NCBI GenBank assembly: GCA_934091055.1
Contig: CAKOKN010000001.1
Span: 118,642-182,641 of the forward strand
DNA length: 64,000 nucleotides
Origin: an uncultured Bacilli bacterium
GTDB lineage: Bacteria; Bacillota_I; Bacilli_A; RF39; UBA660
Direction of reading: 5' to 3'
Shown here: positions 784 through 57,941 of the stretch, piece by piece
How positions within the stretch are numbered: the stretch's first letter is position 1
How the letters are laid out: every line of letters starts with the position of its first letter
Notes under the pieces: generated by a model
Told to the model about the DNA's origin: nothing
The model's database searches: none
Seen by the model: only the letters and a program-made list of their open reading frames with translations
Translations under genes and position numbers: made by a program

Positions 784-837
784 CATAAGATAGACTACAG
801 GCTATCTTATGCCTCGGAAGACAAGTGGCTTACGAGG
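784..837. repeat. Paired-hairpin intergenic repeat, copy E1: cataagatag-ACTACAGG-ctatcttatg followed by cctcggaag-ACAAGTGG-cttacgagg
   Basis: Two adjacent perfect hairpins. The loop motifs recur in six other intergenic sites of this window. Confidence 0.6.
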
Positions 838-937
838 AAAAAAAGAAGAAAAAATGTAGAAAAATAGAGAAAGTTATATACATTTTCTTTATTTTTTGTT
901 ATAATTAAACTGTATCATTTTAGGGAGAGTCGATATC

Positions 938-2182
938 GTGAAGAAAATATATACTGCTATTGATATTGGATCTGATACAATTAAGTTTGTTGTAGGAGAG
1001 TATTTTAAGGGTAGAGTTAATATTCTTTCTTCCTACGAAGGTAAATCAAAAGGGATAAGAAAAGGTTTAATTGTGGATCCTAATTTAGCTATTACTGCTA
1101 TTAAAGATGGAATAAAAGAGATTAATAGTTCTCTTGGTATAAATATTAATAAGGCTATTGTTAATGTGCCTGATTATAATTCTAAGTTTATTTATGTTAC
1201 TGGAGAAGTTGATATTACTAGTGAAGATGGGATTATTAGTACTGATGATATTAATAAAGTTATTAAGGCTTCAGTATACTCTAAGTTAGCACAAGAATAT
1301 GAACTTATTACAGTTATTCCTCTTGCTTTTTCAGTTGATGATAAAGTAGAGGCTACTCCTATTGGTAAGAGTGGTAGAAAACTTGGAATAAAGGGTATTA
1401 TGGTATCTGCTCCTAAGAAGAATATTTATTCTGTTTTATCTGTTATGGAAGGGGCTGGTATAGAAGTAGTTGATATTACTGTATCAGGTCTTGGAGATTA
1501 TTATGAAGTTAGAAATGATACTCTAGATAAGAGTTTAGGAGCTATTATTAATTTGGGATATGAGACTACTAATGTATCTATATTTAATAGAGGTAAACTT
1601 ATGAATACAGAGACTATACAATTAGGTGGTATAAATGTAGATAAAGATCTTGCCTATATGTTTAATATTAATATGTTTGATGCTAGAATTATTAAAGAGA
1701 AGTTTGCTTCTTCACATAAGAGATTTATTGCACTTAATGATGTTTATGAAGTTAAGAATACTGCTAATGAGACTGTTAAGTTAAATCAGATTGAAGTTAC
1801 GGAAATAGTTATGGATAGACTAGCAGAGATATTAAAGCTAGCTAGGAAACAAATATTTTTGTTGACAAAACGAGATATTTCTTATATAGTAATAACAGGA
1901 GGATTGACAGAAATAAGGGCTTTTAAGAATTTAGTCTATGAAATTCTAGGAAAAGATGTTATAATATATATTGAGGATACTCTTGGTATAAGAGACAATA
2001 AGTATACTACTGCAGTTGGTATGATTAAGTACTTTGTAGATAAGACAGAGACTAGAGGTAGAGAGTATTCAATGATAGATGAAGAAAGTGAGGATTTACT
2101 TATAAATCCTAATAAAAATAGAAAGGACAAAACTGCAATTACCAAAATATTTGGAAATTTTATTGGCACTAAGGAGGATTAA
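938..2182 (+). CDS. ftsA: Cell division protein FtsA (GTG start)
   Basis: Actin-like ATPase fold, N-terminal [14 protein letters not shown]; immediately precedes ftsZ; GGGAGAG RBS 8 nt upstream. Confidence 0.9.
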
Positions 2183-2184
2183 GG

Positions 2185-3264
2185 ATGAATAATATGTTTG
2201 GTTTGGAAATGGATCAATTAGCTAAAATTAAAGTTATTGGAGTTGGGGGAGGCGGCTGTAATGCTGTCAACAGAATGATTGAGTCAGGTTTAAAGGGCGT
2301 TGAATTTATTGTTGCTAATACTGACCTTCAAGTTTTAAATAATTCTCTTGCTCCAATAAAATTACAAATTGGTAGAGAACTTACTGATGGACTAGGAGCA
2401 GGAGCTAATCCTGAGATAGGTAGAGAGGCAGCACTTGAATCTAAAGCTGAGATAGAAGAGGCTATTAAGGGTGCTGATATGGTATTTATTACTTGTGGTA
2501 TGGGTGGTGGTACTGGTACTGGTGCTGCACCTGTTATGGCAGAGATTAGTCAGGATCTTGGAGCTTTGACTGTTGGTATAGTTACTAAACCATTTAGTTT
2601 TGAAGGAAAGAAGAGAATGACACAAGCGATTGCAGGACTTGATGAGTTAAAGAAACACGTAGATACTTTGATAGTTATACCTAATGATCGTTTGAGAGAA
2701 CTTATTGATAAGTCTACGCCAATGCTTGAGGCATTTAGAGAAGTAGATAATGTATTACATAGAGGTGTACAGTCTATATCTGATTTGATAGCAGTATCTG
2801 GACTAGTTAATCTAGATTTTGCGGATGTTAAGACTGTTATGAAAGATAGAGGTAATGCTTTAATTGGTATTGGTGTTGGATCTGGAGAGAATAGAGCTAC
2901 AGATGCTGCTAAACAGGCTGTATCTTCACCACTTCTTGAGACTTCTATTAATGGAGCTACTGATGCTATTATTAATGTTACTGGTGGAGCTTCACTTACT
3001 TTGTATGAGGTAGAAGAGGCTGCAGAAGTTATTAGAACTGCTGCTAATACTGATATTAATACGATATTTGGAGCAGTTATTAATGAGAACTTGAATGATG
3101 AGGTAATAGTTACTGTTATTGCTACTGGTTTTGAAAATCAGAGTGAACCTTTATATCATAGTTTTAGTTCTACTAATAAGGAAGATTTATTTAGAGAGGG
3201 TACTAATGATATTGATAATGATTTGGATATTCCTCCATTCTTAAGAGATAGAGATACTTTTTAG
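2185..3264 (+). CDS. ftsZ: Cell division GTPase FtsZ
   Basis: Tubulin signature GGGTGTG, N-terminal [17 protein letters not shown]; AAGGAGG RBS. Confidence 0.95.
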
Positions 3265-3293
3265 TTTAAAAGAGTTATAAATAGTTTTAATTA

Positions 3294-3336
3294 GAGAATT
3301 GTAATCTGTAATTTAGAGATGGCAATTCTTTTTTTG
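3294..3336 (+). terminator. Putative intrinsic terminator after ftsZ
   Basis: agaattg...caattct stem followed by T7 run; the loop is long, so strength is uncertain. Confidence 0.35.
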
Positions 3337-3338
3337 TT

Positions 3339-3391
3339 CCTTTCTAACCTGTAGTTTAGAAAGGTTTGATAAAGCCTTGGATCTTTATCAA
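3339..3391. repeat. Paired-hairpin intergenic repeat, copy E2: cctttctaa-CCTGTAGT-ttagaaagg followed by ttgataaag-CCTTGGAT-ctttatcaa
   Basis: The CCTGTAGT loop is the reverse complement of the ACTACAGG loop in E1; same two-hairpin architecture. Confidence 0.5.
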
Positions 3392-3421
3392 AGAAATATT
3401 TTGGGAAATAATTTAGATATT

Positions 3422-3462
3422 TTAGCAATTGGTATTGACAATTGCTAAAATAGTGCTATAAT
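3422..3462 (+). promoter_or_regulatory. htpG promoter (-35 TTGACA 3435-3440, -10 TATAAT 3457-3462) embedded in a CIRCE-like 9-N9-9 inverted repeat TTAGCAATT-N9-AATTGCTAA (3422-3448)
   Basis: Perfect 9-bp inverted repeat with 9-nt spacer, matching the CIRCE geometry (TTAGCACTC-N9-GAGTGCTAA) in 6 of 9 positions per arm. It overlaps the -35 box of a near-consensus sigma-A promoter. Confidence 0.45.
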
Positions 3463-3499
3463 TATATTTGTAATAAAGTTATAGGAGATGGTTATAATA

Positions 3500-5380: not shown

Positions 5381-5408
5381 TTATAATTAAGAAAGGAAAG
5401 TGATTTAT

Positions 5409-5786
5409 ATGCTTACTAACAGATTTTTTCTAGATGACAATTTCTTTAAAGGAGAAGAAGGTGTAAGAAGTGATATTTATGAAAAGGATGGTAATATTGT
5501 TGTAGAAATGGAAGCTCCTGGTTATACTAAAGAAGATATTTCTATTTCTATTGATAAGGGTGAGTTATCTGTTACTTTTGAAAAGAAAGAAGAAGATGAG
5601 GAAAATAAAAAGTATCTTCATCGTGAAAGAAAGAGCTATAGTAAACTTACTAGAACCTTTTATCTAGGAGATGTAGATGAAGATAATTTGACTGCTAGTT
5701 TTAAGAATGGTGTTCTTACTGTTAAGACTTCTAAGAATAAAGAAATAGAAACTAAAAAAACTATAGATATAGTAGACTCTGAATAA
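5409..5786 (+). CDS. Hsp20/alpha-crystallin family small heat-shock protein
   Basis: Alpha-crystallin domain pattern (DIYEKDGNIVVEMEAPGYTKEDISISID ... GVLTVK); 28-nt gap after htpG implies co-transcription; AAGGAAAG RBS 8 nt before ATG 5409. Confidence 0.8.
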   Translation: MLTNRFFLDDNFFKGEEGVRSDIYEKDGNIVVEMEAPGYTKEDISISIDKGELSVTFEKKEEDEENKKYLHRERKSYSKLTRTFYLGDVDEDNLTASFKNGVLTVKTSKNKEIETKKTIDIVDSE

Positions 5787-5854
5787 GAGCCTACTTTTTA
5801 TTTGACTTTTAGAGCTATATATGTTAATATAAAGGTGTTTTAAGGGGGAATATA

Positions 5855-6730
5855 ATGATTACTAATAAAGAACTTGGTTATGTAACTTCGTGGGCTAATA
5901 AAGTACCATATCCAGGAATTTCTTATGCTAAGATGGCTGCGGATAATTTATCTAATGCTTTTGAGAACTTTAATAAGTACTATAGTGGTAAAGAATATGA
6001 TGTTGTTTTATCTAATGGAGAAGAATTTCTTTTTGAAATTTTAAATATGAATTTATGTCATATGTTAGGTATTGATTATAAGAATTTAAGTGGTCCTTAT
6101 TTTGATACTTTTAGGAAACAAGTTATACCAGATTTTAATGATACTGGTTCTTATGATTTACTTAAAGCTATTATTAATAATATTGATGATGTACTTAACT
6201 ATGACTTTAATATAGGAGGTAAATTACTTAATTATTATCGTATAGTAATTAAATGTGCTATATTTGATAAATTATCTGATTTTGGTAAGTTTAATTTTGG
6301 TGTTATTAATTTTGATAAGAATACTTATATAAATACTTCTAAAAGAAATATAAATAGTAATAGTGAGAAATATTTATATGTACAAAGTAATGAAGGAGTA
6401 GCTCCGTACTTTATGATGGGTATTATACCACAAAATGGATTTAATGCAGAAGAAAGTACTCCGAAGAAGTATGCAGTAGAAACTTTGATGGCTCCAGTTA
6501 ATGCTGATGACTTTTTTAGAGATCAAGAAGTCGTTATTCCAACACAAATACTTGTTACTACTGATAAAGCTATGTCTAGAAAAGAGGCTTCTTCAGAAGA
6601 TAAGATAGCGCTTCTTAATCAATATCGTTCTATTATTAGTTCTTATGGACTTAATAATAGACTTAATATATATGGTGATTACGAAGCAATGTTAGTAAAT
6701 GATATGAAGATTAAGACTAAGAAATTATAA
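5855..6730 (+). CDS. Hypothetical protein (291 aa), no recognisable family
   Basis: Long ORF with strong GGGGG RBS; forms a tight pair with the next ORF. Confidence 0.6.
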   Translation: MITNKELGYVTSWANKVPYPGISYAKMAADNLSNAFENFNKYYSGKEYDVVLSNGEEFLFEILNMNLCHMLGIDYKNLSGPYFDTFRKQVIPDFNDTGSYDLLKAIINNIDDVLNYDFNIGGKLLNYYRIVIKCAIFDKLSDFGKFNFGVINFDKNTYINTSKRNINSNSEKYLYVQSNEGVAPYFMMGIIPQNGFNAEESTPKKYAVETLMAPVNADDFFRDQEVVIPTQILVTTDKAMSRKEASSEDKIALLNQYRSIISSYGLNNRLNIYGDYEAMLVNDMKIKTKKL

Positions 6731-6745
6731 TATTAGGAGGAATAT

Positions 6746-10161: not shown

Positions 10162-10186
10162 AAAATATTAAGGGTTGTCCTTAATA

Positions 10187-27020: not shown

Positions 27021-27391
27021 TACAAGTCCCCTACTTTAATTTTTTGCAGTGTAGTAGAGGATAAAGTGTTAAATAAAACAATAATATAATTGATTATCTA
27101 TTAATTAAATGTTATTGTTGTGCTACTATAGAATTAATATAAATATAAATAATAAAGTAGACTTTAAATTAATTAAATTAAAATTTAAAATCTATTTTAA
27201 TTTTATTTATTAATTAATGTAATTATAGTTAAATAATTACTAATACTAATAATAAATAACATAGTTAGTTAAATAGTTAAAAATAGTTTGATTTTAAGCT
27301 TAACAACTAACTTACTTTTATTATAAAATGATAGTTCCTATAATTAATATTATGTTAACTTCTATAAAATAGAAGAAGAAGGAGTTTAAAA

Positions 27392-27613: not shown

Positions 27614-27784
27614 ATGAGTAAAAAAGATAATAAAAAAGACAAAACTAATAATAAGTTAGATAAGTCTAATTCTTTTGATTGTAATTGTCAAGAACACGAT
27701 TGTGACGATAGTTGTAACTGTGATTGTCATAAAGATAATAAAACTTCTTGCAAGAAACAAGACGATACAAAAGATATGTTATAA
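27614..27784 (+). CDS. Cys-rich small protein (56 aa, 7 Cys in CNC/DC/SCNCDC arrangement), start at MSKKDNKK
   Basis: GGAGG RBS 8 nt before ATG 27614 (the track's TTG start at 27599 is unlikely). Followed by a strong hairpin terminator at 27806-27833. Confidence 0.45.
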   Translation: MSKKDNKKDKTNNKLDKSNSFDCNCQEHDCDDSCNCDCHKDNKTSCKKQDDTKDML

Positions 27785-27874
27785 TTAGTATATAAGAGGA
27801 TAGGGTATTTTCCTATTCTCTTCTTTTAATACTTATATTAATAATTAAAAAGTAGGGTTTACTCCCCTACTCTT

Positions 27875-29250: not shown

Positions 29251-30171
29251 TCAGTCCCTTCTTTGATATAATTTATAGTTTTCTTTTAATATTTCAGTAC
29301 TTACATTTGTATATATTTGTGTAGTAGTAATATTGGCGTGTCCTAACATTTCTTGGATAGTTCTAAGATCGGCACCATTATTTAGTAAGTGTGTTGCAAA
29401 GGAATGTCTAAGCATATGAGGTGTTATGTTTTTATCAATATTTTTTTCATTAGCTATCTTTTTTATTATTTTAAAGAAACCTTGTCTTGTCATTTCTTTG
29501 CCGTGATTATTTAAAAATATATTTTCGGTATAGTAGCCTTTTTTCATACTGTCTCGATAATCTTGAATATATATTTTTAAGTAATTATTTGCATATTCTC
29601 CAATTGGTACTATTCTTTCTTTACTTCCTTTACCGAAGCATCTAACATAAGAGTTATCTAAATCAATATCTTGTAATTTTAGACTTACTAATTCACTTAC
29701 TCGAAGTCCTGAAGAATACATAAGTTCTAACATAGCTTTATTTCTATAATCAAACGGAGTATCTAATTTAATATCTAATAGATTATCTACTTCTTCGATT
29801 GTTAGAATATTGGGTAGTTTTCTATATTCTTTAAAACTTTTTATTTTACTACTTTCATTATTTATATTATAAGTTTCACTAAGATAATTATGAAATGATT
29901 TAATAGCCACTATTTTTCTAGCTATAGAAGTTTTTGCTAGATTATTATCATCTAGATATTTTAAATATTTAATTATATCATTATATTTTATCTTTAATGG
30001 ATTGTTTATATTATTTTCTTCTTGATATGTTAAATATTTGTATATATCTGTTATATAAGAAGATACTGATGTATTTTTATCCATATGTTTTATTGTTATT
30101 AAATATATTTGATAATCATCTAGTATTTTTTTGTTTTTATTATTTAGTGACAATTTTTCTATTTTTAACAT
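29251..30171 (-). CDS. xerD: Tyrosine recombinase XerC/XerD-like
   Basis: C-terminal catalytic region HMLRHSFATHLLNNGADLRTIQEMLGHANITTTQIYT (R..H..R..Y). Confidence 0.8.
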   Translation of the reverse strand: MLKIEKLSLNNKNKKILDDYQIYLITIKHMDKNTSVSSYITDIYKYLTYQEENNINNPLKIKYNDIIKYLKYLDDNNLAKTSIARKIVAIKSFHNYLSETYNINNESSKIKSFKEYRKLPNILTIEEVDNLLDIKLDTPFDYRNKAMLELMYSSGLRVSELVSLKLQDIDLDNSYVRCFGKGSKERIVPIGEYANNYLKIYIQDYRDSMKKGYYTENIFLNNHGKEMTRQGFFKIIKKIANEKNIDKNITPHMLRHSFATHLLNNGADLRTIQEMLGHANITTTQIYTNVSTEILKENYKLYQRRD

Positions 30172-33945: not shown

Positions 33946-34145
33946 AGCACAACAATCTAATTAGGATCCTTACTTCATAAGCAAGTATTCAACACATAAA
34001 TTGTATTAGCTCCCCTATTTATATCTTTAGTCGGTTTTATACTAAAGATGTCGTATCCTCTAGGCAATTTAATTATATCATAGTCTTAATTTATATTCAA
34101 TATTTTTGATTATATTTGACAATTATTTTACTTAAAGTATTTTTA

Positions 34146-34198
34146 TTTTTGAGACCTCAAGACTCAAAAATACCCCGGAAGACAAAAGGCTTACGGGG
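34146..34198. repeat. Paired-hairpin intergenic repeat, copy E3: tttttgag-ACCTCAAGA-ctcaaaaa TA ccccggaag-ACAAAAGG-cttacgggg
   Basis: Same architecture and flanking TAAT..AAATAAAT tail as copies E5 and E7; lies just 3' of a minus-strand gene. Confidence 0.6.
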
Positions 34199-34217
34199 TA
34201 ATAAAAGATAAATATAA

Positions 34218-35741
34218 TTAATTCGTTTTTCTTCTTACTAAAGTATATTTTTTATTATCTTCGATAGTATCTGGAGTTATAATTAACTTTTCATAGGTAT
34301 TAGGATTAGTGGCTATTTCAAAAGAAGCTTCAGATAGTGCTGTTTCGATTATTTCATCTAGACTACGAGCGCCAAGATTATTATTTGAGGCTTTTAGAGC
34401 AATAGCTTTTTTTGCTGCTTCTTCTACTATAAGATCTATTTCTCTCTTTTTAAAAAACTCTTTTTGAGTATTTAAAACACTATTTTTAGCACGGTTTAAT
34501 ATCTCTAAAAGACTATTATAGTCTAATTCATTCATCTGAACAATAATATTAAATCTACCTACCAATTCAGGAATCATACCATTCTTTATAAAATCTTCTT
34601 TAGTTAAATCTTTATATTGTCTCTTTTTAGATTTCTGTTCAAACCCTACTACTTTTTCTTCTTCTAATTCTATTCTAGACCAACTACCCATTGCTATTAC
34701 CATTAGTCTTCCTGTTTCAAAAGTTGTTTGACTACCTTTATAGGTAACTAAGTAAGAACCGTCTTCGATCATCTTTAGAAGGTTTTCTTGAACATCTCTT
34801 TGGTTTACTGAGGAAGTGTCTTTTGTCTGGGATATTTTATCTATTTCATCTATTATTAGAATGCCTCTTTCAGCTTTATCTAAGTTACCATCAGCTTTTT
34901 CTAGTAGTGCTGTTAACATATCTTCAACACTTCTTCCTATGTAACCAGTGGCTGAGTATTGAGGAGCAGATGCTATTACAGTTGGAATGCCTATTTCTTC
35001 AGCAATTATTCTAAATATTTCAGTCTTACCTACTCCAGTACTTCCATTTATTAAGATATTTCTTGATTTATTGTCAGAGAAATCGTTATACTGTTTCCAT
35101 ATACCTACGAGTATTTTTCTTATTGGTTCATCTTGATTTATAACATTAGAAGTTAATTCTTTATATAGAGCATTTATGTCTATAGATTGATTATCTTTAT
35201 TTTGACTACTAGTACTCTCTATCTCTGCGGTTTTAATATGCTCTTCGATGGCTTCTTTTATTATTTTTTTATCTTCTTGTTGTTTTTCGTTCTCTTCGAT
35301 TTTTAGATAATTTTTTAATAAATCAGGACAATACTCTAAATAGTATGGTAAGAGTGTGGAATCAAATAGTGGTGTTTTTTTGCTAGGATTTTGCTTACTT
35401 GTGATAATTATAACTGGCACTTCATCATCTACTATTTGTGCTAATTGATAATAGTAACCACGACTGTTCTTTAGAAGTAATGCTTTTACTACTGGTAGTG
35501 GTATATGAGGATACTGCTTACGAATATTTTCAATGCTTATGCAATTTGCAAAGCCGTATGTCTCTGGATTATCAATTAGATGATGATATATGGTATTATC
35601 TTTGTCTGTGAAAACTTCATTGTCCTGATCGAATACTCCTTCGATTACTTTTATTGGTATAAACTCTATTGTTTGTTTTCCAATTCCATACGATGGATGT
35701 GTTATTTTAAAAATAACTGCTAGTTCTTGTGCTTTTCTCAT
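34218..35741 (-). CDS. ClpX/HslU-type AAA+ unfoldase paralog lacking the Zn-binding domain, with a novel ~200-aa N-terminal domain
   Basis: The C-terminal 300 aa carry Walker A INGSTGVGKTEIFRIIAE, Walker B ILIIDEIDKIS and a ClpX-like sensor region; no CxxC zinc ribbon. Confidence 0.6.
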   Translation of the reverse strand: MRKAQELAVIFKITHPSYGIGKQTIEFIPIKVIEGVFDQDNEVFTDKDNTIYHHLIDNPETYGFANCISIENIRKQYPHIPLPVVKALLLKNSRGYYYQLAQIVDDEVPVIIITSKQNPSKKTPLFDSTLLPYYLEYCPDLLKNYLKIEENEKQQEDKKIIKEAIEEHIKTAEIESTSSQNKDNQSIDINALYKELTSNVINQDEPIRKILVGIWKQYNDFSDNKSRNILINGSTGVGKTEIFRIIAEEIGIPTVIASAPQYSATGYIGRSVEDMLTALLEKADGNLDKAERGILIIDEIDKISQTKDTSSVNQRDVQENLLKMIEDGSYLVTYKGSQTTFETGRLMVIAMGSWSRIELEEEKVVGFEQKSKKRQYKDLTKEDFIKNGMIPELVGRFNIIVQMNELDYNSLLEILNRAKNSVLNTQKEFFKKREIDLIVEEAAKKAIALKASNNNLGARSLDEIIETALSEASFEIATNPNTYEKLIITPDTIEDNKKYTLVRRKTN

Positions 35742-47474: not shown

Positions 47475-47573
47475 CTTAATATAATTATACTAATTTTTTT
47501 ATATATTGACAAGTGATAAAAAGAAAAACTCTCTAATGAGAGTATTTATATTTTATTAATAATTTTTTTATAT

Positions 47574-47630
47574 CCTCTTGAGTCTTAGGTCTCAAGAGGT
47601 ATTTTATAGCCTTATTCTAAGTCTATAAAA
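47574..47630. repeat. Paired-hairpin intergenic repeat, copy E4 (inverted orientation): cctcttgag-TCTTAGGT-ctcaagagg TA ttttatag-CCTTATTCTAAGT-ctataaaa
   Basis: The reverse complement of copy E5 is near-identical: the second hairpin is 29/29 identical and the first has compensatory stem changes. Confidence 0.7.
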
Positions 47631-47749
47631 TAATATATCATCCATATATATTAAATCGACATCATTCAATATATTAATTGTCCGCAACGTTAAATCATAA
47701 TAATTTCCATTGCCAACTCCTATAACATATAATTTACTCATAAAATTCA

Positions 47750-48292
47750 CTAAATAAATTTGCCTATTTCTTCAATTAAATTTGTATTTTTTTCTACTTT
47801 TATTGTATTTATTCCTAATTGTTTTGCTCCATTGACATTATCAATGTTATCATCAAGGAATAATAGTTCTTTTGAATTGATGTTGTATTTGTTTAATATA
47901 TATTCGTAAAATTCTGAATTAGGTTTTATTTTATGTATCTCAGCAGAGATAATTAAATCATCCAAGTAATCAACATTAAAAGACTCTCCAATAAAATTTC
48001 TTACAAATGATAAGTGATTAGTTGCTATAATAACCTTTACATTTTTATTTTTTTCTTTTACTTTTTTAAATATTTTTCTATCTTTTACTTTATATAATTT
48101 GTCAATTAATGTTTCTGTAATATTCATAATTATTGAATCTTTTTCAATAATTTTTCTTGCTTCAATTAAATAATCTGCATCATTTAAGTTTGGTCCAAAC
48201 ATTCTTTCTAACTTTTCTTCTATTTCTGATAGTTCTATATCCTTTTCATTAACAAGAACACCAACCAAATCAAATGCAACAACTTTTATCAT
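47750..48292 (-). CDS. HAD superfamily hydrolase
   Basis: Motif I FDLVGVL (DxD variant), motif IV LFLDDNIDNVNGA; GGAGGAATAAAATG RBS. Confidence 0.7.
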   Translation of the reverse strand: MIKVVAFDLVGVLVNEKDIELSEIEEKLERMFGPNLNDADYLIEARKIIEKDSIIMNITETLIDKLYKVKDRKIFKKVKEKNKNVKVIIATNHLSFVRNFIGESFNVDYLDDLIISAEIHKIKPNSEFYEYILNKYNINSKELLFLDDNIDNVNGAKQLGINTIKVEKNTNLIEEIGKFI

Positions 48293-48361
48293 TTTATTCC
48301 TCCATTAATAAATACACAACATAGGGTAAATTTAATTATTTTATTTTTTGATTTTAATAAA

Positions 48362-48547
48362 TTATTTATGTGTGTGGGTTCCACAACCGTCGTAACCCAA
48401 TCCAATTTTATTTCCAAAGGAAATTTTAATTTTTTGGTCTGAAAGTTTTGTTTTTAGATTTTTTACAATATCATTTTTTAATTGCACTTTTTTCACAATA
48501 TACAACTTTTCATCTAATGGGCAAACTTCCCAAAACTTGTAATCCAT
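48362..48547 (-). CDS. Possible small protein (61 aa, CP...CGTH)
   Basis: ORF only; no RBS. Confidence 0.2.
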   Translation of the reverse strand: MDYKFWEVCPLDEKLYIVKKVQLKNDIVKNLKTKLSDQKIKISFGNKIGLGYDGCGTHTHK

Positions 48548-48647
48548 TCTACATTATTTATCATAATAAGTCAATAAATTTCATTAAAAATGCAAGATGA
48601 ATGCATGAGTTTTTTAAACTTGTGTGTTTATCCTGAAAAATATTTTA

Positions 48648-48704
48648 TTTTATAGACTTAGAATAAGGCTATAAAATACCTCTTAAGACCTTAGGCTTAA
48701 GAGG
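48648..48704. repeat. Paired-hairpin intergenic repeat, copy E5: ttttatag-ACTTAGAATAAGG-ctataaaa TA cctcttaag-ACCTTAGG-cttaagagg
   Basis: Immediately 3' of a minus-strand gene, followed by the TAATGAATAATAAATAAAT tail shared with E3 and E7. Confidence 0.7.
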
Positions 48705-48722
48705 TAATGAATAATAAATAAA

Positions 48723-50231
48723 TTATTTACTTACTTTAACAGTTCTTTTTTTAATACTTAAAGCTGCTCCAGCACTAGCAAGAGCTATAGCACTAAGAAT
48801 TAATACTAAGTTGATGTCTGAAGTTTGAGGGTTTTTAGTTTCTGTATTATTACCTTTTGCTTCTACTTTTACGAAGTTCATATATAAAGTAGTATTTTCA
48901 TTGAAAGCTTTAGTAAAGTCAGCTTTTGTTTTAAGTTCTTTATCTAGATAGTAACCTTCTAATTTGTAACCATCTTCTTCTTCACCAATTAGTTTATTTA
49001 GGTCAGCAATAACATCTTCATCAAATGTTGTTTCTTTTGGAACGATTATAGTGTTATATATTGTTGATTCTTTTGTATCGCTTAGTATAGCAGCTAATTT
49101 AATAGATATTGTGTCTTCTGCTAGATATTTATTATCTATTTCATTTGTGAATGAAGCTGTTACTATTGATATTGGTCCAACTCCTTGTTCACTTTCTTGT
49201 AATCCTTTTAATGGCTCTGATATAGATATTGGTGCTATTCCTTCTGGATTAGAGAAATCTCCACCAGTAATTTTAATTACACCAACAGCAGTTTCCTCAT
49301 CACTACCGTATTCTAGGATAGAGTTACCGTTTTTACTTGTGAATATTCCATTTTCGATATACATTTCTACATTTCCATAGTATGACTGTGGATTTGTTTC
49401 AATTTGAATAGTAGAGCCACTTGGATTTATTCCATTTCCATAGTTTTCTGGTCTTGCTACATATGCTCCAGTAGCAGTGAATTCTCCACCTTTAATGTTG
49501 TATGTACCAGATTTTGCTCCGATAGCAGATCCTTCACCAGTTATTTTAGTACCTTCTTCGATGTTCCATACAGCGTTTCCTGCTCCATATAATGCTACAG
49601 CATCTTTTCCTGCAGCGTTAACAGTAGCTCCTGTTTTTACATTAATAACTGGACGATTAGATGTTTCTTTGATATAACCGTTTACTGTTATACCGTTTTC
49701 TGTTGCATTGATTGTTCCTTGGAAGTTTACTACTCCACCGTAACTTTGTGTTGTTGTTCCGTAGAATACTGAAATACCTGTATTTCCGTTTAGAGTTACG
49801 TTTTTACCTACTGTTAATGTAGAATATGGTTCAGTAGTAGAAGTAGTACTAGCCCAAACACTTACAGCAACGTGTCCTTTATGAGTAATAGTACCTGTAC
49901 CAGTAATAGTTAATGATCCATTATCAATTATGATTGATTTGTTTTCTGGTATAGTAAGTTTTCCTTTACTATCTGGTAACATAGTTGGTTCAGTACTAAG
50001 ATTATGACCATTTAAGTCTAATGTTAGTGATTTACCACCTGTTACCATAAGTGAATTACTACCACCTTTATGGTTTTCAATATTGGCAGTTAGTTTGATT
50101 GTGTCTCCACTAGCAGCTGTACTAAATGCATTTATTAATTCAGCATCAGTGCTTGCTGTTAGTTCAGCAGCTTTAACACCTGGAACAAATAGTGCTATAG
50201 CAGCCACAAGAAATAATAATTTCTTTTTCAA
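48723..50231 (-). CDS. Cell-wall-anchored beta-helix-type surface protein with NPQTS sorting signal (sortase B substrate candidate)
   Basis: Signal peptide. Gly/Thr/Asn-rich repeats typical of parallel beta-helix adhesins. C-terminal NPQTS plus hydrophobic segment plus KKRTVKVSK tail. Confidence 0.7.
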   Translation of the reverse strand: MKKKLLFLVAAIALFVPGVKAAELTASTDAELINAFSTAASGDTIKLTANIENHKGGSNSLMVTGGKSLTLDLNGHNLSTEPTMLPDSKGKLTIPENKSIIIDNGSLTITGTGTITHKGHVAVSVWASTTSTTEPYSTLTVGKNVTLNGNTGISVFYGTTTQSYGGVVNFQGTINATENGITVNGYIKETSNRPVINVKTGATVNAAGKDAVALYGAGNAVWNIEEGTKITGEGSAIGAKSGTYNIKGGEFTATGAYVARPENYGNGINPSGSTIQIETNPQSYYGNVEMYIENGIFTSKNGNSILEYGSDEETAVGVIKITGGDFSNPEGIAPISISEPLKGLQESEQGVGPISIVTASFTNEIDNKYLAEDTISIKLAAILSDTKESTIYNTIIVPKETTFDEDVIADLNKLIGEEEDGYKLEGYYLDKELKTKADFTKAFNENTTLYMNFVKVEAKGNNTETKNPQTSDINLVLILSAIALASAGAALSIKKRTVKVSK

Positions 50232-51555: not shown

Positions 51556-51564
51556 TCTTCTCTC

Positions 51565-51813: not shown

Positions 51814-51933
51814 ATTAATATATATGTAATAGGACTAAAATTTATGAAAATATTGGATTATATAGGTATTCGTAGTGCATTTTTATTTACTTTTGTCATA
51901 AGTTATATTGAATACAAAAAAGGGGTGGATTAT

Positions 51934-52353
51934 ATGTGTAATAATGAAAATAATACTTGCGAGAATTGTATCGCAGATATTCTTAAAGTTATCCTTATAC
52001 TTCAGCAAAGTGTATGTCAAAATGACTGCTGCCTAGAGACTTGTGATAGAGGTTTCTTAGGTCAGAATAGTAGTTTCTGCTACAATACTAGACCTATTCA
52101 GCTATATACTTGTTCAGGGGGAAGTACACCACTTGCAATGCCAATTAGTAAAGATCCAAGTGTTACCACTACAAGTACTGTCTTTAGATTAGAGAAGTTA
52201 GATGGCTGCTGTGCTACTTGTAGAGTACTTGCTCCTAATACTGATGAGACTAGTGTATTTCCATATGAAGCTACTAACTCATTCTTTACTATTAACTTAG
52301 GTTGCTGTTGTGTACTTAGATGTCTTGATGATACATTTGTTGAATGTATATAA
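51934..52353 (+). CDS. CotZ/CotY-family Cys-rich spore coat/exosporium protein (start at MCNNENN)
   Basis: TVFRLEKLDGCCATCRVL and GCCCVLRCLD resemble the CotZ RVERVHGSCATL / CFCAINCLN blocks recalled from B. subtilis. GGGGTGG RBS before the internal ATG at 51934; the track's longer N-terminus is hydrophobic and lacks an RBS. Confidence 0.55.
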   Translation: MCNNENNTCENCIADILKVILILQQSVCQNDCCLETCDRGFLGQNSSFCYNTRPIQLYTCSGGSTPLAMPISKDPSVTTTSTVFRLEKLDGCCATCRVLAPNTDETSVFPYEATNSFFTINLGCCCVLRCLDDTFVECI

Positions 52354-52380
52354 AAAGCAGGTAAATATTCCTGCTTTTTT

Positions 52381-52431
52381 CACTACAAGTCTTAGGTCTT
52401 GTAGTGTTATTTTTAGCCTGTAGTCTAAAAA
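52381..52431. repeat. Paired-hairpin intergenic repeat, copy E6: cactacaag-TCTTAGGT-cttgtagtg ... tttttag-CCTGTAGT-ctaaaaa
   Basis: Carries both loop motifs (TCTTAGGT as in E4, CCTGTAGT as in E2); lies between convergent cotZ-like and pheT. Confidence 0.6.
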
Positions 52432-52479
52432 TAATAGATTGGGATTAGTAAAAAAAAATAGAACTTTTAAGGTTCTATT

Positions 52480-54846
52480 TTAATTATTTCTTAACTTAGC
52501 ATTATGTTTTTTTTCTACTTCATCAGTTATTTTAGTAAACACTTCTGTTACTTCTTCTAGAGTAAGAGTTTTATTTGGATCTTCAAAGTATAGAGAGAAA
52601 GCTAATGATTTATTATTATCTCCAAGTGAAGGATCTATATATAAATCAAATACTTCTATCTTAGTAAGTAATCTTCCACCAGACTTTTTGATAGTCTTAA
52701 TTACTTCTTCAGAAGTTATATTTTTATCTAATACGAAAGCCAAGTCTTTAGTTATGCCAGGGAATTTATTTATTTCCTTGTATTTCATTTTTGATGTTTT
52801 AATATCTTTTAATAGTGATAAGTTAACTTCTGCTACAAAGATATTATCTTTAGTAATAGTAGGATGTATTTTACCTATTATACCTACTTTTTTATTATCT
52901 ATATATATACTAGCAGCTACTCCAGGATGTAATTCTTTAGGTAAGTCTTCTTTCTTATAGTAGTACCTATTATTATAACCTAGATAATTTAATACTTTTT
53001 CTAATATTCCTTTTATTATATAATAGTTTACTTCTCTATTTGAACCTAGTTTATTATAATAAGTTCCACTCATTAGAAGAGTTAATTTTTCCTCTTCATA
53101 GTGTTCTTTATCCTTTACATAATAACTTTTTCCTATTTCAAAGAGATTTATATTACTATTATTATGTTTAGTATTGTAGTCATATACTGACAGTAGGCTT
53201 GGTATTAGACTATATCTTAGAGTACTTCTCTCTTCAGTCATTGGATCTTGAAGTTTTATACTATCAAATTCATCATTAGTATATTTATGTACTTCACTCT
53301 CTTTTATTAGGGAGTAAGTAAGAGTTTCTGATAGACCTAAAGTGCTAAGTAGATGTCTAATACTTCTATTTGTTTTATCTATCTTTCCTGTTTTAACTGG
53401 CAAGATCATTTCTCTGCCTTTTATGTTATCTATGCCATATATTCTTCCTACTTCTTCAATTAAATCTTCTTCGATTTCGATATCTATTCTTCTAGAAGGT
53501 ACGGTAACTAGTACTTTATCTTCTTTATCTTCAGTAGTAAAATCTAATTTTCTAAATATATCTAGGATAGTATCTTTACTTAACTCTATTCCTAATACTT
53601 TATTTATTTTATTATATGATATTTCTATTTTTTTATCTTTTATATCAATATTTTTATATTCTAGAGTACCTTCTACTATTTTAGCATCTGCATACTTTTC
53701 TAATAGATGTAAGCTTCTTTCAATAGCCATATATGTTCTTTTTGGATCTAGACCTTTTTCAAATCTATTTGAAGCTTCACTTCTAAGTACTTTTTTACTT
53801 GTCTTTCTAATTAGTACAGGATCAAAGATAGCACTTTCAATAACAATATTTTTAGTATCAGCCTCTACTTCAGTAGATAGTCCTCCCATAATACCAGCAA
53901 GGCCAATAGCACCAGTATTGTTATATATTACTATATCAGAAGTAGTTAGTGTTCTTTTTTGATTATCTAGTGTAATTAGTTCTTCATTAGAGGTTGCTAA
54001 TCGTACTCCTAGAAGGCTTCCTAATCTATCAGCATCATAATAATGAAGTGGCTGACCTGTTTCTAACATTACATAGTTAGAGATATCTACGACATTGTTT
54101 ATTGGTCTGATACCTGAGGCTATTAGTCTATTTTTAATAAAGTTTGGACTTTCTTTGATAGTTACATCTTTTACTTTTCTAGCTAGAAATAATGAACAGT
54201 AAGATGTATCTACGCTTAATTTTAATTCATCACTTATATTACCAGTACCCCTACTATGTGATAAATCTATATCTTTTACTTTTTTGTCATAGATAGCTCC
54301 TAATTCATAAGACATACCTAATATACTTAGTAGATCCCCTCTGTTGGATGTTAGTTCAAAGTCTATTACTTCATCATCTAATTCTAAATATTTTATTGGG
54401 TCTTCTCCTACTTTAGCAGTACTATCTAATTCACAAATACCATTAATGTCTTCGTCTTTTAGGAATTTATGATCTAGACCTAGTTCAGCAATAGAACATA
54501 ACATTCCATTAGATTCTACTCCTCTTATAACGCCTTTTTTAATTGTACCTCCTGGTAGTGTAGCTCCTGCTAGAGCAACAATTACTTTTAAGCCTTTTCT
54601 GACATTTGGTGCACCACATACTATTTGTAGTACTTCATTTCCTATATTTACCTTACATACGTGTAAATGATCAGAGTCTTGATGTATGTTGCATTCTAGT
54701 ACTTCTCCTATTACGAGGTTAGTGCAGTTTATTAACTTACCAGCACTATCATATTCATTACCAACACCAGTCATTTTTTCGGCTATTGTATTTATATCTT
54801 CTTCTAGATCTATGTAATCACTTACGAATTTTCTTGATAACTTCAT
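52480..54846 (-). CDS. pheT: Phenylalanine--tRNA ligase beta subunit
   Basis: 788 aa with tRNA-binding, B3/B4 and B5 domains. Confidence 0.9.
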   Translation of the reverse strand: MKLSRKFVSDYIDLEEDINTIAEKMTGVGNEYDSAGKLINCTNLVIGEVLECNIHQDSDHLHVCKVNIGNEVLQIVCGAPNVRKGLKVIVALAGATLPGGTIKKGVIRGVESNGMLCSIAELGLDHKFLKDEDINGICELDSTAKVGEDPIKYLELDDEVIDFELTSNRGDLLSILGMSYELGAIYDKKVKDIDLSHSRGTGNISDELKLSVDTSYCSLFLARKVKDVTIKESPNFIKNRLIASGIRPINNVVDISNYVMLETGQPLHYYDADRLGSLLGVRLATSNEELITLDNQKRTLTTSDIVIYNNTGAIGLAGIMGGLSTEVEADTKNIVIESAIFDPVLIRKTSKKVLRSEASNRFEKGLDPKRTYMAIERSLHLLEKYADAKIVEGTLEYKNIDIKDKKIEISYNKINKVLGIELSKDTILDIFRKLDFTTEDKEDKVLVTVPSRRIDIEIEEDLIEEVGRIYGIDNIKGREMILPVKTGKIDKTNRSIRHLLSTLGLSETLTYSLIKESEVHKYTNDEFDSIKLQDPMTEERSTLRYSLIPSLLSVYDYNTKHNNSNINLFEIGKSYYVKDKEHYEEEKLTLLMSGTYYNKLGSNREVNYYIIKGILEKVLNYLGYNNRYYYKKEDLPKELHPGVAASIYIDNKKVGIIGKIHPTITKDNIFVAEVNLSLLKDIKTSKMKYKEINKFPGITKDLAFVLDKNITSEEVIKTIKKSGGRLLTKIEVFDLYIDPSLGDNNKSLAFSLYFEDPNKTLTLEEVTEVFTKITDEVEKKHNAKLRNN

Positions 54847-55880
54847 TACTCTTCATCCTTTCTATCGAATTGTCTTAACATTCTGACATCATTAGTATAT
54901 AGATATCTGATATCTGGAATGTTATATTTAAACATTGCTAATCTATCTAAACCTGTACCGAAGGCAAAACCAGTATATTTTTCTGGATCATATCCACCCA
55001 TTCTAAGTACATTAGGATGAACCATACCTGCTCCTAATACTTCAATCCAACCAGTGTTTTTACATAAAGGACAACCTTTTCCACCACATTTAAAACAAGA
55101 TAAATCTACTTCAACACTTGGTTCAGTAAATGGGAAGTAACTTGGTCTAAATCTTACTTTAGTATTATCTCCTAGTATTCTTTTAGCAAATATTTCTAGT
55201 GTTCCTTTTAAATCTGCTAATGAGATATCTTTATCAATAACTAAACCTTCTACTTGACCGAATTGATGGGAATGAGTAGCATCATCGTCTCTTCGATAAA
55301 CTTTACCAGGACAAATTATTCTAATTGGTCCTTTTTCTGTATTTTCCTCCATAGTATGAGCTTGAGCACAAGATGTTTGAGTACGAAGTAAATACTCTGT
55401 ATCTATGTAGAAAGTATCTTGAGCATCTCTTGCGGGATGTCCATCTGGAACATTAAGTCTTTTGAAGCAATATTCATCTGTCTCTACTTCATTTCCTGGT
55501 ACTACATCATAGCCCATACTTACAAAGATGTCTTCTACTTCTTCAATTATTCTATTAAATGGATGAAGAGATCCTGTTATTATTTCTTCGCTAGGTAAAG
55601 TAATATCTATTGCTTCTTTTTCTAGTTTTTTATTTATTTCTTCAGTTTCTATTCTTGTTTTTACTTCTTCGAACAATGTATTAAAGTAAGTTCTAATTTC
55701 ATTTACTTTGATACCATATTCTTTTTTGTCTTCATTTGGTATTTCTTTGATTTTACTTTGAAGTAAAGTAATCACTCCTTCTTTACCTAAATATTTACTT
55801 TTAATATCTAAAAGTTCTTGATTTTTACTTAAACTTTTTAAATCGCCCTCTATTTGTTTTTTTATTTCTTCTGTATTCAT
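54846..55880 (-). CDS. pheS: Phenylalanine--tRNA ligase alpha subunit
   Basis: Class II core motifs (FRPSYFPFTEPS, GAGMVHP). Confidence 0.9.
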   Translation of the reverse strand: MNTEEIKKQIEGDLKSLSKNQELLDIKSKYLGKEGVITLLQSKIKEIPNEDKKEYGIKVNEIRTYFNTLFEEVKTRIETEEINKKLEKEAIDITLPSEEIITGSLHPFNRIIEEVEDIFVSMGYDVVPGNEVETDEYCFKRLNVPDGHPARDAQDTFYIDTEYLLRTQTSCAQAHTMEENTEKGPIRIICPGKVYRRDDDATHSHQFGQVEGLVIDKDISLADLKGTLEIFAKRILGDNTKVRFRPSYFPFTEPSVEVDLSCFKCGGKGCPLCKNTGWIEVLGAGMVHPNVLRMGGYDPEKYTGFAFGTGLDRLAMFKYNIPDIRYLYTNDVRMLRQFDRKDEE

Positions 55881-55889
55881 AATTCCTCC

Positions 55890-56177
55890 CTATACATTAT
55901 CAAGAAGCATTATTACTTCTTCTTTACTTAATTTTTTTTCATATTCTTTTATTTTATTTAAATAGTTATTATGACTAATAGTTAACTCCTCTAATGAATC
56001 ATATACTATTTTATCAATGTTCTTAACACCATACTTTATTAGATATTTTATATTTAAATCAGTGTCTATATAGTTATCTTCAACTAATGATAGAACATAA
56101 GGACTTTTATTTTTAAGTATTTTTTTATATGTTTCATTACTTACATATCTTAATAAATATTCTATATTATAATTCAT
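55890..56177 (-). CDS. Small hypothetical protein (95 aa, start at MNYNIEYLL) between the T-box terminator and pheS
   Basis: AGAGGTG precedes the ATG. The track's longer form would overlap the T-box terminator and is rejected. Confidence 0.35.
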   Translation of the reverse strand: MNYNIEYLLRYVSNETYKKILKNKSPYVLSLVEDNYIDTDLNIKYLIKYGVKNIDKIVYDSLEELTISHNNYLNKIKEYEKKLSKEEVIMLLDNV

Positions 56178-56184
56178 ATGCACC

Positions 56185-56390
56185 TCTTTTAAATAGAAAA
56201 AAGGTGATACCATAAAAGGACGAATTATTATCCGCGGTACCACCTTTCTTTATAACTAATGTTATACTTCTTAAAATCTATAACCTGATTAATGGTATAA
56301 AACTAAAGGGTGAATTCGTATTAAATATCTTATTAGGCTTCCACCATTCCTAACTCTCTATAAAGCATCTTTAATATTACTACTTCCTTA
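56185..56390 (-). ncRNA. T-box riboswitch leader (Phe specifier UUC) controlling the small ORF-pheS-pheT operon
   Basis: Minus strand has stem I with AGAGA and ...CGAATTCACCC (UUC then A), T-box sequence AAAGGTGGTACCGCGG (plus 56232-56248) and terminator GGTGGTACC...GGTATCACC followed by T6. Confidence 0.75.
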
Positions 56391-56398
56391 TCTTGGTT

Positions 56399-57208
56399 TT
56401 ATTTATTTCTTTGTTTAATACATTTTAATAATCTTTTTACTTCTTCTGGCTTATTTGTTAATATGTCTTTACCATAATATTCTGAACCAGCTTCTGTACT
56501 TATTCCGTATCTATTAGCATATGAGTTTACGCCCTCTATTAATAGTGTCTTTGGATTAGGTATACTGCTAGTTGTTTTCTTAAATATCTCATCGCTTCCA
56601 AACTTAATTGCGTAGTATGGTTCTACTTTAGTTATATTACTAATTATGCTACTTCTTGTTTGATCTAACATAATGCAACTTAGTTTTAGATCTCCTCCAA
56701 AAATTTCATTTAATAATTTATTGTTTCTATAGTTAAAACGAAATCTTGGTTCTTTTGGCAATTCTTTACTTAATATTTTTACTGTTTCATCTATTATAAA
56801 TGGAGTATCAATTTCTTGTTCTTCAAATAGGGCTAATCTATTTAGATTGTAGATTATACTACTTGATTCTTGCTTTAGTAGTTCAGTGCATAACTGTACA
56901 TCGTTTTGAGCAAACTCCGAGTATGCTATTTCTTCAGGATACATTCTACATATTGCGTGTGATATTTCTGGATCCTCTTTTAGGTAATTATAAGCAAACT
57001 TAAGTTTTCCTTTCATAGGTTTATTAGTTCCATCTATAGCTATTGATTCAATTGCTTTAGCTAAGATATACTTATAAATATTTGCTCCTTTATCTTGCAT
57101 TTTGTATAATTCTTCTGTTGTAGGCATAAATAATTCTTTGTAATTACTCTCACTTTTGGTAAAATCATAATTATTTTTTAATACATCATTTACTTCTTTT
57201 CTAGTCAT
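56399..57208 (-). CDS. Hypothetical protein (269 aa)
   Basis: Long ORF, no family assigned. Confidence 0.5.
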   Translation of the reverse strand: MTRKEVNDVLKNNYDFTKSESNYKELFMPTTEELYKMQDKGANIYKYILAKAIESIAIDGTNKPMKGKLKFAYNYLKEDPEISHAICRMYPEEIAYSEFAQNDVQLCTELLKQESSSIIYNLNRLALFEEQEIDTPFIIDETVKILSKELPKEPRFRFNYRNNKLLNEIFGGDLKLSCIMLDQTRSSIISNITKVEPYYAIKFGSDEIFKKTTSSIPNPKTLLIEGVNSYANRYGISTEAGSEYYGKDILTNKPEEVKRLLKCIKQRNK

Positions 57209-57231
57209 TTTAATTTCCCCCTTAATTAAAA

Positions 57232-57774
57232 CTATATTGTCATTAAGTCTTTTTCTTTCTCTTTTAATTTTTCATCAATTATTTTATTGTACTCTTGAAT
57301 TAAGTCTTGAACTTTTACTTCAGCATTCTTTTCATCATCTTCGGGTAATTCTAGAGTCTCTAATGATTTATTAGCATCTTGTCTAATATTTCTAAGTGCT
57401 ATTTTAGCTTCTTCTGCTAAAGCTTTTACTTGTTTAACTAATTCTTTTCTTCTATCTTCTGTAAGTGCAGGTATTACTATAAATACTACTTCACCATTGT
57501 TGTTTGGTGTTACTCCTAAGTTAGCTTCAAAGATAGCTTTCTCGATAGCTCCTAGAGCACTTCTATCAAATGGTTTTATTGATAGTTGTCTTGCTTCAGG
57601 AACTGAGATATTTGCTAAACTTTTTATTGGTGTTGGTACTCCATAGTATTCTACTAATACACCATCTAACATTGAAGGATTAGCTCTTCCTGCTCTAACA
57701 TTTAAAAATTTATTTTCTAGTGATTCGATAGTTAACATCATTTTTGATTCTGTGTTATTTAATATTTCTTCCAT
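57232..57774 (-). CDS. frr: Ribosome recycling factor
   Basis: 180 aa, strong RRF signature throughout (LENKFLNVRAGRANPSMLDGV...). Confidence 0.9.
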   Translation of the reverse strand: MEEILNNTESKMMLTIESLENKFLNVRAGRANPSMLDGVLVEYYGVPTPIKSLANISVPEARQLSIKPFDRSALGAIEKAIFEANLGVTPNNNGEVVFIVIPALTEDRRKELVKQVKALAEEAKIALRNIRQDANKSLETLELPEDDEKNAEVKVQDLIQEYNKIIDEKLKEKEKDLMTI

Positions 57775-57881
57775 AATATCTCCTTTTTACATATGCTATT
57801 TTACCATATTTTTGCTTTTATGTAAACATTTATACTTGTTTTTCTTTAATTATTGCTTTTATACAAAACATAAATAGTTTA

Positions 57882-57941
57882 TTTTAGAGACTTAGGAATA
57901 AGGCTCTAAAATACTCGGGGAAGACCTCAAGGCTTCCCGAG
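57882..57941. repeat. Paired-hairpin intergenic repeat, copy E7: ttttagag-ACTTAGGAATAAGG-ctctaaaa TA ctcggggaag-ACCTCAAGG-cttcccgag
   Basis: Same order, spacer (TA) and AAATAATAAATAAAT tail as E5; 3' of a minus-strand gene. Confidence 0.7.

Follow-up and report, generated by a model that had tools for sequence, protein, structure and literature searches.

A stretch of 64,000 nucleotides of an uncultured gut Bacilli bacterium (positions 118,642 to 182,641 of contig CAKOKN010000001.1, assembly GCA_934091055.1; hereafter the window) carries seven copies, E1 to E7, of an element of about 55 bases made of two adjoining hairpins. These seven elements form a true hairpin repeat family and are not independent terminators. 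All of them were found where the initial annotation had placed them, and its view that they are a family of hairpins rather than simple terminators is supported by a tip motif that is exclusive to the element hairpins and never appears in shuffled sequence. The reading that we favour, with moderate confidence, is that of a dispersed noncoding repeat similar to repetitive extragenic palindromic (REP) elements and bacterial interspersed mosaic elements (BIMEs), specific to a clade of low-GC gut Bacilli and partly co-opted as terminators.

A hairpin repeat family with a fixed tip

The unit of the family is one hairpin of 26-34 nt, the lower stem of which (9-11 bp) can have any sequence provided that it is paired. 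Units always follow each other head to tail, with the same polarity and without a linker, either as doublets, as in the window, or as triplets, as at the uvrA locus of two related lineages (L042 and L077; L numbers designate the loci compared). Apparent singlets are found elsewhere, several of which show a degraded second hairpin when inspected. In each doublet an AT-rich first hairpin (hpA; master form TATTTTATAG...CTATAAAATA) abuts a second hairpin (hpB; master form CCTCTTAAG...CTTAAGAGG). With the loops read as AC..GG, the orientations from E1 to E7 are +, -, +, -, +, - and +. E2 fits the family only on the minus strand, where its AT-rich first hairpin has the loop ATCCAAGG and its second hairpin, which starts with CCT, the loop ACTACAGG.

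The alignment of 34 hairpins (13 from the window and 21 from other lineages) reveals a tip frame that is fixed across copies and species, 5'-AG-A.C-(N3-9)-A-G.G-CT-3'. The frame starts with two closing pairs, A-U and G-C, which are followed by a mismatch (A·G or A·A) and a C-G pair, with an A in front of the 3' G. On top of it the hairpin ends in an NNNA tetraloop or in a small additional stem (for example ACTTAGAATAAGG), and the loop centre is variable (CTT, TAC, TTT, TAT, CTA, AAG, AAA, CCA or longer inserts). In the lower stem seven of nine positions vary, with 99% of the cells paired, a proportion inflated by a scan that demanded pairing. Covariation measured on 15 doublets confirms the compensatory changes proposed by the initial annotation: the proportion of paired cells is 96.5%, shuffles giving 72.7% and slid partners 27-59%, and both sides have changed at 16 of the 21 pairs. 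A few G·U pairs are present in the AC..GG sense. The stems are not, on the other hand, perfectly paired throughout, as had been stated, since hpB of E1 and of E3 share a G·A mismatch and hpB of E7 contains a bulged G. Loop-loop complementarity, kink-turns, CsrA-type GGA loops, anti-Shine-Dalgarno mimicry and dif-like core sites were considered by eye and dropped, as none fits all of the loops.

Whichever strand is taken, the seven elements fold into two hairpins that adjoin each other (z = -3.8 to -7.0). A scan based on structure only found 38 perfect hairpins with a stem of at least 9 bp in the window, compared with 10.3 in block shuffles. The strict tip AG-AC..G[GA]-CT is carried by nine of these 38, by none in 30 shuffles and by none of the 27 window hairpins outside the elements, clear terminators included. 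The loop motif exceeds chance: AGAC-N4-10-GGCT occurs 13 times in the window for 3.7 ± 1.9 expected, and the nine in excess all lie within elements, the four sites outside being stemless and at chance level. The junction pattern GGCTNTAAAATAC-N6-7-AGAC is found three times, with none expected. We also built the covariance model that had been suggested from the copies, as a single-hairpin model, and ran it on the window without filters. It scores 13 of the 14 element hairpins at 26-38.5 bits (Table 1) and the opposite strand of each hairpin at only 13-21 bits. The fourteenth, the bulged hpB of E7, which was outside the training set, reaches 17.2 bits, the best unrelated site of the window being at 19.9 bits. 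Overall, the model cleanly sets family hairpins apart from the background, both in the window and over 235 kb of related loci. From these chance statistics and covariance-model scores, the window holds exactly seven doublets.

Could the elements nevertheless be unrelated intrinsic terminators that look alike through their AT-rich composition? Bidirectional intrinsic terminators of low-GC Firmicutes do consist of an A-run, an AT-rich hairpin and a T-run (Petrillo et al., 2006; PMC1590033), and some element hairpins scored as terminator-like. However, the tip motif is restricted to the element hairpins and is missing from the 27 other strong hairpins and from the shuffles, chance matches to the tip pair elsewhere are stemless, E4 and E5 share 92% identity along 65 bp, and the same tip and master stems recur in other species. 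The junction-pattern, tip-word, covariance-model and hairpin-scan statistics refute this explanation, to which we accord almost no likelihood.

The similarity between copies ends at the hairpins or at a short A-rich tail. The initial annotation had described one tail common to E3, E5 and E7; the sharing is instead pairwise, with AATAATAAATAAAT for E5 and E7 and TAATAAAA(G/T)ATAAATA for E3 and E4. The first 16 bases of the E3 tail (TAATAAAAGATAAATA) match the stretch 3' of E4 at 15 of 16 positions. The 14-mer AATAATAAATAAAT lies at 48710-48723 in E5, its last base being the first base of the stop codon. The similarity between the flanks of E5 and E7 (48710-48745 and 57943-57975) extends beyond this 14-mer to the final codons of two genes that are unrelated (TTACTTTAA..TTCTT); either flanking DNA was copied with an element, or the likeness is an AT-rich coincidence.

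Table 1. Coordinates of the seven elements, their hairpins and A-rich tails in the window, with covariance-model scores
Feature	Position	Strand	Description	Score (bits)
E1 doublet	784-837	+	hpA 784-811 (CATAAGATAG-ACTACAGG-CTATCTTATG)	31.2 (hpA)
E1 hpB	812-837	+	CCTCGGAAG-ACAAGTGG-CTTACGAGG; one G·A mismatch	26.0
E2 doublet	3339-3392	-	hpA 3365-3392 (loop ATCCAAGG)	33.3 (hpA)
E2 hpB	3339-3364	-	loop ACTACAGG; closing pairs A-U/A-U in place of A-U/G-C	27.8
E3 doublet	34144-34198	+	hpA 34144-34172 (loop ACCTCAAGA)	29.7 (hpA)
E3 hpB	34173-34198	+	loop ACAAAAGG; G·A mismatch	30.0
E3 A-rich tail	34199-34217	+	TAATAAAAGATAAATATAA; fills the gap between hpB and the stop codon	
E4 doublet	47574-47632	-	hpA 47600-47632 (loop ACTTAGAATAAGG, mini-stem)	30.8 (hpA)
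E4 hpB	47574-47599	-	loop ACCTAAGA	33.9
E5 doublet	48646-48704	+	hpA 48646-48678, identical to hpA of E4	30.8 (hpA)
E5 hpB	48679-48704	+	loop ACCTTAGG; stem one compensated pair apart from that of E4 hpB	38.5
E5 A-rich tail	48705-48722	+	TAATGAATAATAAATAAA; extends to the stop codon	
E6 doublet	52381-52434	-	hpA 52407-52434 (loop ACTACAGG)	35.9 (hpA)
E6 hpB	52381-52406	-	loop ACCTAAGA	30.7
E7 doublet	57880-57941	+	hpA 57880-57913 (loop ACTTAGGAATAAGG)	29.8 (hpA)
E7 hpB	57914-57941	+	CTCGGGGAAG-ACCTCAAGG-CTTCCCGAG; bulged G	17.2
E7 A-rich tail	57942-57957	+	AAATAATAAATAAATA; extends to the stop codon	

Distribution and change between orthologous sites

The window is a chromosomal stretch with a GC content of 27% that encodes Firmicute housekeeping and sporulation genes. 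It is 100% identical to a scaffold of a human-gut metagenome (ENA ERZ28613786 scaffold_247), of which 83 kb are readable, and its species is found again in other gut samples, several of them from Hadza. True members of the family are present in at least eight related uncultured gut lineages (L042, L075/L099, L076, L077, L148, L157, L158 and L160), for which the labels of the metagenome-assembled genomes are 'Tenericutes bacterium' or 'Bacilli bacterium'. The master stems and the tip are the same across species. Most of the loci retrieved by pattern were chance matches: a 16-base pattern run against genome contigs was unspecific (about 113 of 118 loci), the true members being only L042, L075, L076, L077 and L099 (GTDB genomes), and a 20-base pattern with two gaps run against metagenomes returned 20 loci, of which only L148 is a true member. 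The covariance model found no family hairpins in the related loci L159, L165 and L169.

Phage, plasmid and viral collections yielded no member, and BLAST against plasmids and phages gave no meaningful match. Four scans of viral contigs were equally without a member, the tip-pair matches there being stemless and thus serving as a negative control. With Rfam 15 at the gathering threshold the sole match in the window is a T-box elsewhere, with none over the elements; a permissive search over E5 gave PyrR at best (22.9 bits for a threshold of 54, E = 0.21). Our literature searches found no description of this hairpin family. As far as the databases and literature searched show, the family is new, its general kind being known.

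Three orthologous comparisons are informative about how the hairpins change. In hpB of E2, a T-A pair of the window (CCTTTCTAA/TTAGAAAGG) is replaced, with compensation, by C-G in another strain of the same species (L161; CCTCTCTAA/TTAGAGAGG), and the hpA loop differs by two changes. E6 is found at the same place and in the same orientation in L158, where one pair is compensated (window, CACTACAAG/CTTGTAGTG; L158, CACTAAAAG/CTTTTAGTG) and the loops differ by three changes. Finally, the uvrA triplets of L042 and L077 differ by six changes, every one of them in a loop, and are identical in their 58 stem bases; the 3' end of uvrA is approximately 84% identical between these two lineages and the DNA past the triplet cannot be aligned. 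The loop centres are therefore the fastest-changing part, the tip frame is unchanged, and the stems are invariant or altered by compensated pairs. This reverses the initial picture of fixed loops on freely evolving stems: only the edges of the loops, which make up the tip frame, are fixed. Such a fixed tip on free but compensating stems is unusual, all the more so with compensated changes even within a species.

Gene 3' ends, orientation and gain or loss as a block

All copies are intergenic and lie at gene 3' ends, between genes that are co-directional or convergent and never divergent. The two orientations relative to transcription are about equally frequent, and no replication-strand bias is seen (three leading-strand and four lagging-strand copies). 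The hpB side always meets an A-rich run, i.e. a T-run on the other strand, and the 5' flank is merely T-rich. This T-run is often that of a native terminator (E2, E6 and the copies L158 and L157b). In the window, native terminators are found beside E2, E4 and E6: E2 abuts the T-run of a terminator-like hairpin of ftsZ (about 3294-3337), with the htpG promoter downstream; E6 is located between the native terminators of two convergent genes, at 52352-52379 (CotZ-like) and 52455-52481 (pheT); and E4, in the non-terminator orientation behind a HAD gene, is followed by an ancestral terminator (ACTCTCATTAGAGAGT and a T-run; 47528-47543, minus strand). E1 is also in the non-terminator orientation, 5 nt past the stop codon of an ftsW-like gene, and is followed by an A-run.

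When hpB is read antisense to AC..GG, the U-rich 5' arm of hpA (UAUUUUAUAG) comes next, and this combination obtains a terminator-like score for E4, E5 and E6; E3, E7 and the uvrA triplet are terminator-like by eye. Relative to the gene upstream, only four of the seven elements (E2, E3, E5 and E7) are in the terminating sense. Copies in the terminator orientation lie 6-19 nt past stop codons and are the sole terminator-like structure there: E3 for the ClpX-like gene 34218-35741(-), E5 for the gene 48723-50231(-), E7 for the gene 57958-59052(-) (with the frr promoter downstream of the element), the uvrA triplet and the L157 copy after mscL. Copies in the other orientation are 5-250 nt from the stop codon and precede A-runs. 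The terminator scan and inspection by eye thus suggest that E3, E5 and E7 may act as terminators of their upstream genes, as the initial annotation had proposed. The 5' arm of a perfect palindrome reads the same on both strands, so that each tandem unit supplies a U-tract for the preceding one.

Every copy being intergenic at a gene 3' end, with none between divergent genes, and the terminator-orientation copies abutting stop codons with an antisense hpB and U-rich arm that match a terminator, we must consider the main rival reading, a purely RNA-level role. The elements would then be cis-acting hairpins of 3' untranslated regions under host selection, with a tip bound by an RNA-binding protein or nuclease or setting the folding, which would serve termination and/or protection against 3' exonucleases and would be copied by ordinary duplication. 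However, about half of the copies are transcribed the opposite way, showing a CC..GU tip with no U-tract behind, and E2, E4 and E6 adjoin a native terminator that already does the job. The strong covariation, some G·U pairs in the AC..GG sense and the invariant stems of the uvrA triplet, next to a uvrA gene of about 84% identity and an unalignable downstream region, would suit this role, whereas the clean presence or absence of the whole doublet between sister species and the lack of an Rfam family match speak against it. All in all, we find an exclusively RNA-level role rather unlikely. The initial annotation had read the elements as REP/BOX-like and under selection for an RNA structure or a protein-bound loop; the REP/BOX-like part is reasonable, but selection on RNA structure is not demonstrated. 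Because the copies run both ways relative to transcription in about equal numbers, they fit a DNA-level element at least as well as RNA-level selection.

The clearest case of gain or loss is E6. PheT identities make L157 the sister of the window species (87%) and place L158 outside this pair (81% to the window species, 81-82% overall), L160 being at 75% identity to the window species. The window and L158 both carry E6, which is cleanly absent from L157 and L160, where the empty site comprises only the two native terminators and a short spacer between them. Where the site is filled, the 54-base doublet directly adjoins the A-run of the cotZ terminator and nothing is duplicated. Comparison of filled and empty E6 sites and of the element flanks revealed no terminal inverted repeat (TIR) beyond the hairpins' own arms and no target-site duplication (TSD). 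Assemblies often break contigs at the elements, as in 1.1-kb contigs bounded by E4 and E5; in practice, the repeats break metagenome assemblies and mark synteny breakpoints.

A second difference between relatives concerns the segment E5-HAD-E4, which sits between the stop codon of a 502-aa gene and the ancestral terminator of that gene, still recognisable downstream of E4, and is missing at this locus in L157, L158 and L160. We rejected the idea that the elements are the ends of a HAD gene cassette, as the HAD orthologues of relatives are found at other loci without hairpins. The gene, which encodes a HAD-family hydrolase, occurs at three loci in three related species (47750-48646 in the window, L165 4540-5985 and L169 4828-5765), with 89-100% protein identity among them and a leader of 350-450 nt, for which the window yielded no Rfam family at the gathering threshold; in L165 a 34-nt direct repeat (AATAATTAATACCATTTATAAAATAACTATTGAT) is found on either side of the gene. 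It behaves like a mobile cassette independent of the hairpins. A further difference was seen on comparing L161 (15015-17952), from a strain of the window species, with L162: L161 has three extra genes (guanylate-kinase-like, HhH-GPD glycosylase and Maf) between hsp20 and the next gene, and no hairpin element is present at the junctions.

The strict alternation of orientations along the window (chance about 1/64, noted post hoc), the HAD gene flanked by inverted E5 and E4 and absent at this locus in relatives, and the XerD-like recombinases nearby raise the question of whether the elements are recombination sites. Seen as duplex DNA, each hairpin would consist of two inverted arms of 10 bp with an asymmetric spacer of 8 bp between them, resembling the core site of a tyrosine recombinase, and opposed copies would bound movable or invertible segments in the manner of pdif modules. 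Recombinase sites nevertheless have conserved arms and a free spacer, the reverse of what the elements show; the HAD orthologues (89-91% identity) at other loci in relatives have no hairpin element; and the Xer genes are explained by the proximity of the replication terminus. As for the alternation, three of four neighbouring element pairs in other loci show it, but L157 has two neighbours in the same orientation. Noted post hoc and not upheld in L157, strict alternation is unproven, and we consider recombination sites very improbable.

The window indeed spans the replication terminus: near 28 kb the GC skew passes from about +0.3 to about -0.1 and gene orientation converges. A 28-mer at 27333-27360 (AGTTCCTATAATTAATATTATGTTAACT) is dif-like, matching 23 of 28 positions of the Bacillus subtilis dif sequence. 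A gene for a XerD-like tyrosine recombinase is located at 29251-30171(-), and a second Xer-like gene lies about 5 kb past the right end of the window (L163 4982-5866). The terminus region, otherwise noncoding over 0.85 kb, includes a small open reading frame (27616-27785, +) for a Lys/Cys-rich peptide of about 56 residues (CNC..CDDSCNCDC), behind which a hairpin and T-run are found at 27798-27822. Upstream of htpG, a perfect 14-bp inverted repeat (3418-3452, TATTTTAGCAATTG-GTATTGA-CAATTGCTAAAATA) overlaps a TTGACA...TATAAT promoter; it is likely to be a heat-shock repressor operator, and is presumably not CIRCE. Finally, a T-box leader (56213-56403, minus strand; Rfam RF00230, 94.5 bits) precedes pheS-pheT.

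A proposed modular DNA-level repeat and its relation to known systems

In the dispersed-repeat reading that we favour, each element would spread, or disappear, at the DNA level as one discrete block. Its landing sites would be T/A-rich places at the 3' ends of genes, as a rule next to the T-run of a terminator already there. The fixed, asymmetric tip with its conserved mismatch and the free but paired stems are in keeping with a protein that would recognise a folded single strand by its tip. The likeliest agent would be a protein acting in trans on the hairpin tip of single-stranded DNA; in that case the stems would need only to pair, and active lineages would keep them paired. The obvious candidate enzyme would be an HUH Y1 transposase such as a RAYT or the TnpA of IS200/IS605, with which the absence of TIRs and TSDs and a clean empty site are consistent. 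Some copies would then have been exapted, antisense hpB and the U-rich arm of hpA being predicted to work as an intrinsic terminator. Copies in the other orientation would not terminate and would be tolerated elsewhere. That the tip (G-C, A·G mismatch, C-G and small loop) is specifically the recognition site of a dedicated protein, which copies or excises hairpin modules as single-stranded DNA, is a speculative proposal that we would not expect to hold. If true, it would amount to a domesticated REP/RAYT-like system in low-GC gut Bacilli that reads the apex instead of a foot tetranucleotide and distributes ready-made 'portable terminators' to gene ends. Were the family mobile, it would show terminators spreading as modules and point to an apex-reading protein.

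Several points weigh against a spreading REP-like repeat. No recent insertion polymorphism at strain level was seen, all of the strains compared carrying E1-E7, and there is no transposase among the genes of the readable 83 kb or beside the elements in other loci. The stems vary among the copies of one genome far more than in classical REP families, and the flanks and stem feet of the copies lack a conserved foot tetranucleotide. The invariant stems of the uvrA triplet argue for a host-level function, at least there. Template switching within quasi-palindromes can likewise produce compensated changes in palindromic DNA, so that covariation is no proof of selection. Moreover, the search covered only about 0.3 Mb of clade DNA in all. 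The unusual conservation confined to the tip and the 'portable terminator' layout merit a genome-wide follow-up, although nothing about the family is categorically new. Of the small dispersed hairpin repeats, those of Proteobacteria (REP, REPIN and BIME) have been studied well and those of Firmicutes poorly; to our knowledge, there has been no such study in the uncultured low-GC gut Bacilli in which this family is found.

The closest resemblance is with REP and BIME-REPIN repeats, which are likewise short imperfect palindromes with a conserved mismatch, present in many copies in intergenic 3' regions; here, 14 hairpins (seven doublets) lie in 83 kb, all of them intergenic, with copies in eight other lineages. 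Multi-unit arrays, the absence of TIRs and TSDs, compensated hairpins and the capacity to act as terminators or mRNA stabilisers are also shared with REP/BIME. However, the elements have no GTAG-type foot tetranucleotide, and their conservation is at the tip rather than over the whole palindrome. Their units run head to tail with the same polarity, whereas those of REPINs are inverted and those of BIMEs alternate. They are also AT-rich in a low-GC Bacilli host, and not GC-rich like the REPs of enterobacteria and Pseudomonas. No gene for a Y1 (PF01797)/RAYT protein was found among the genes of the accessible 83 kb or of the related loci. Without a foot tetranucleotide or a known RAYT, and with head-to-tail units, the elements should not be filed as REP/REPIN. 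They would work in the manner of a REP/BIME array and, in one sense, of tandem terminators. Nor are they miniature inverted-repeat transposable elements, since these are defined by TIRs and TSDs and the elements show neither.

Palindrome-associated transposable elements (PATEs) derived from IS200/IS605 offer another comparison. The two hairpins, which make up the whole element with no duplication, could stand for the left and right subterminal palindromes; TIRs and TSDs are absent here too, and the clean presence or absence is compatible with precise excision or insertion beside a short T-rich word on one strand. Unlike in PATEs, the hairpins abut without internal sequence, triplets and singlets exist, and no TnpA is seen. 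As to a target word for insertion of this type, no fixed tetra- or pentanucleotide emerges among 16 sites, the hpB side abutting an A-rich run. A defined target word and a transposase excepted, the elements have the formal features of those derived from IS200/IS605.

The streptococcal BOX, RUP and SPRITE elements and other small Firmicute repeats are similar in having modular hairpin subunits in variable number, intergenic positions, transcription with the neighbouring genes and Firmicute hosts. The units described here are nevertheless much shorter (26-34 nt) and have no distinct A and C end modules. The likeness to BOX, the two being compared by build, is limited to modularity. Finally, the elements share with the bidirectional intrinsic terminators of low-GC Firmicutes AT-rich hairpins at gene 3' ends; hpB and the U-rich arm of hpA work as such a terminator on paper, and tandem units would be tandem terminators. 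Those terminators, however, do not form a sequence family, whereas the elements share their tip across loci and species, and also occur in the non-terminating orientation and inserted next to bona fide terminators.

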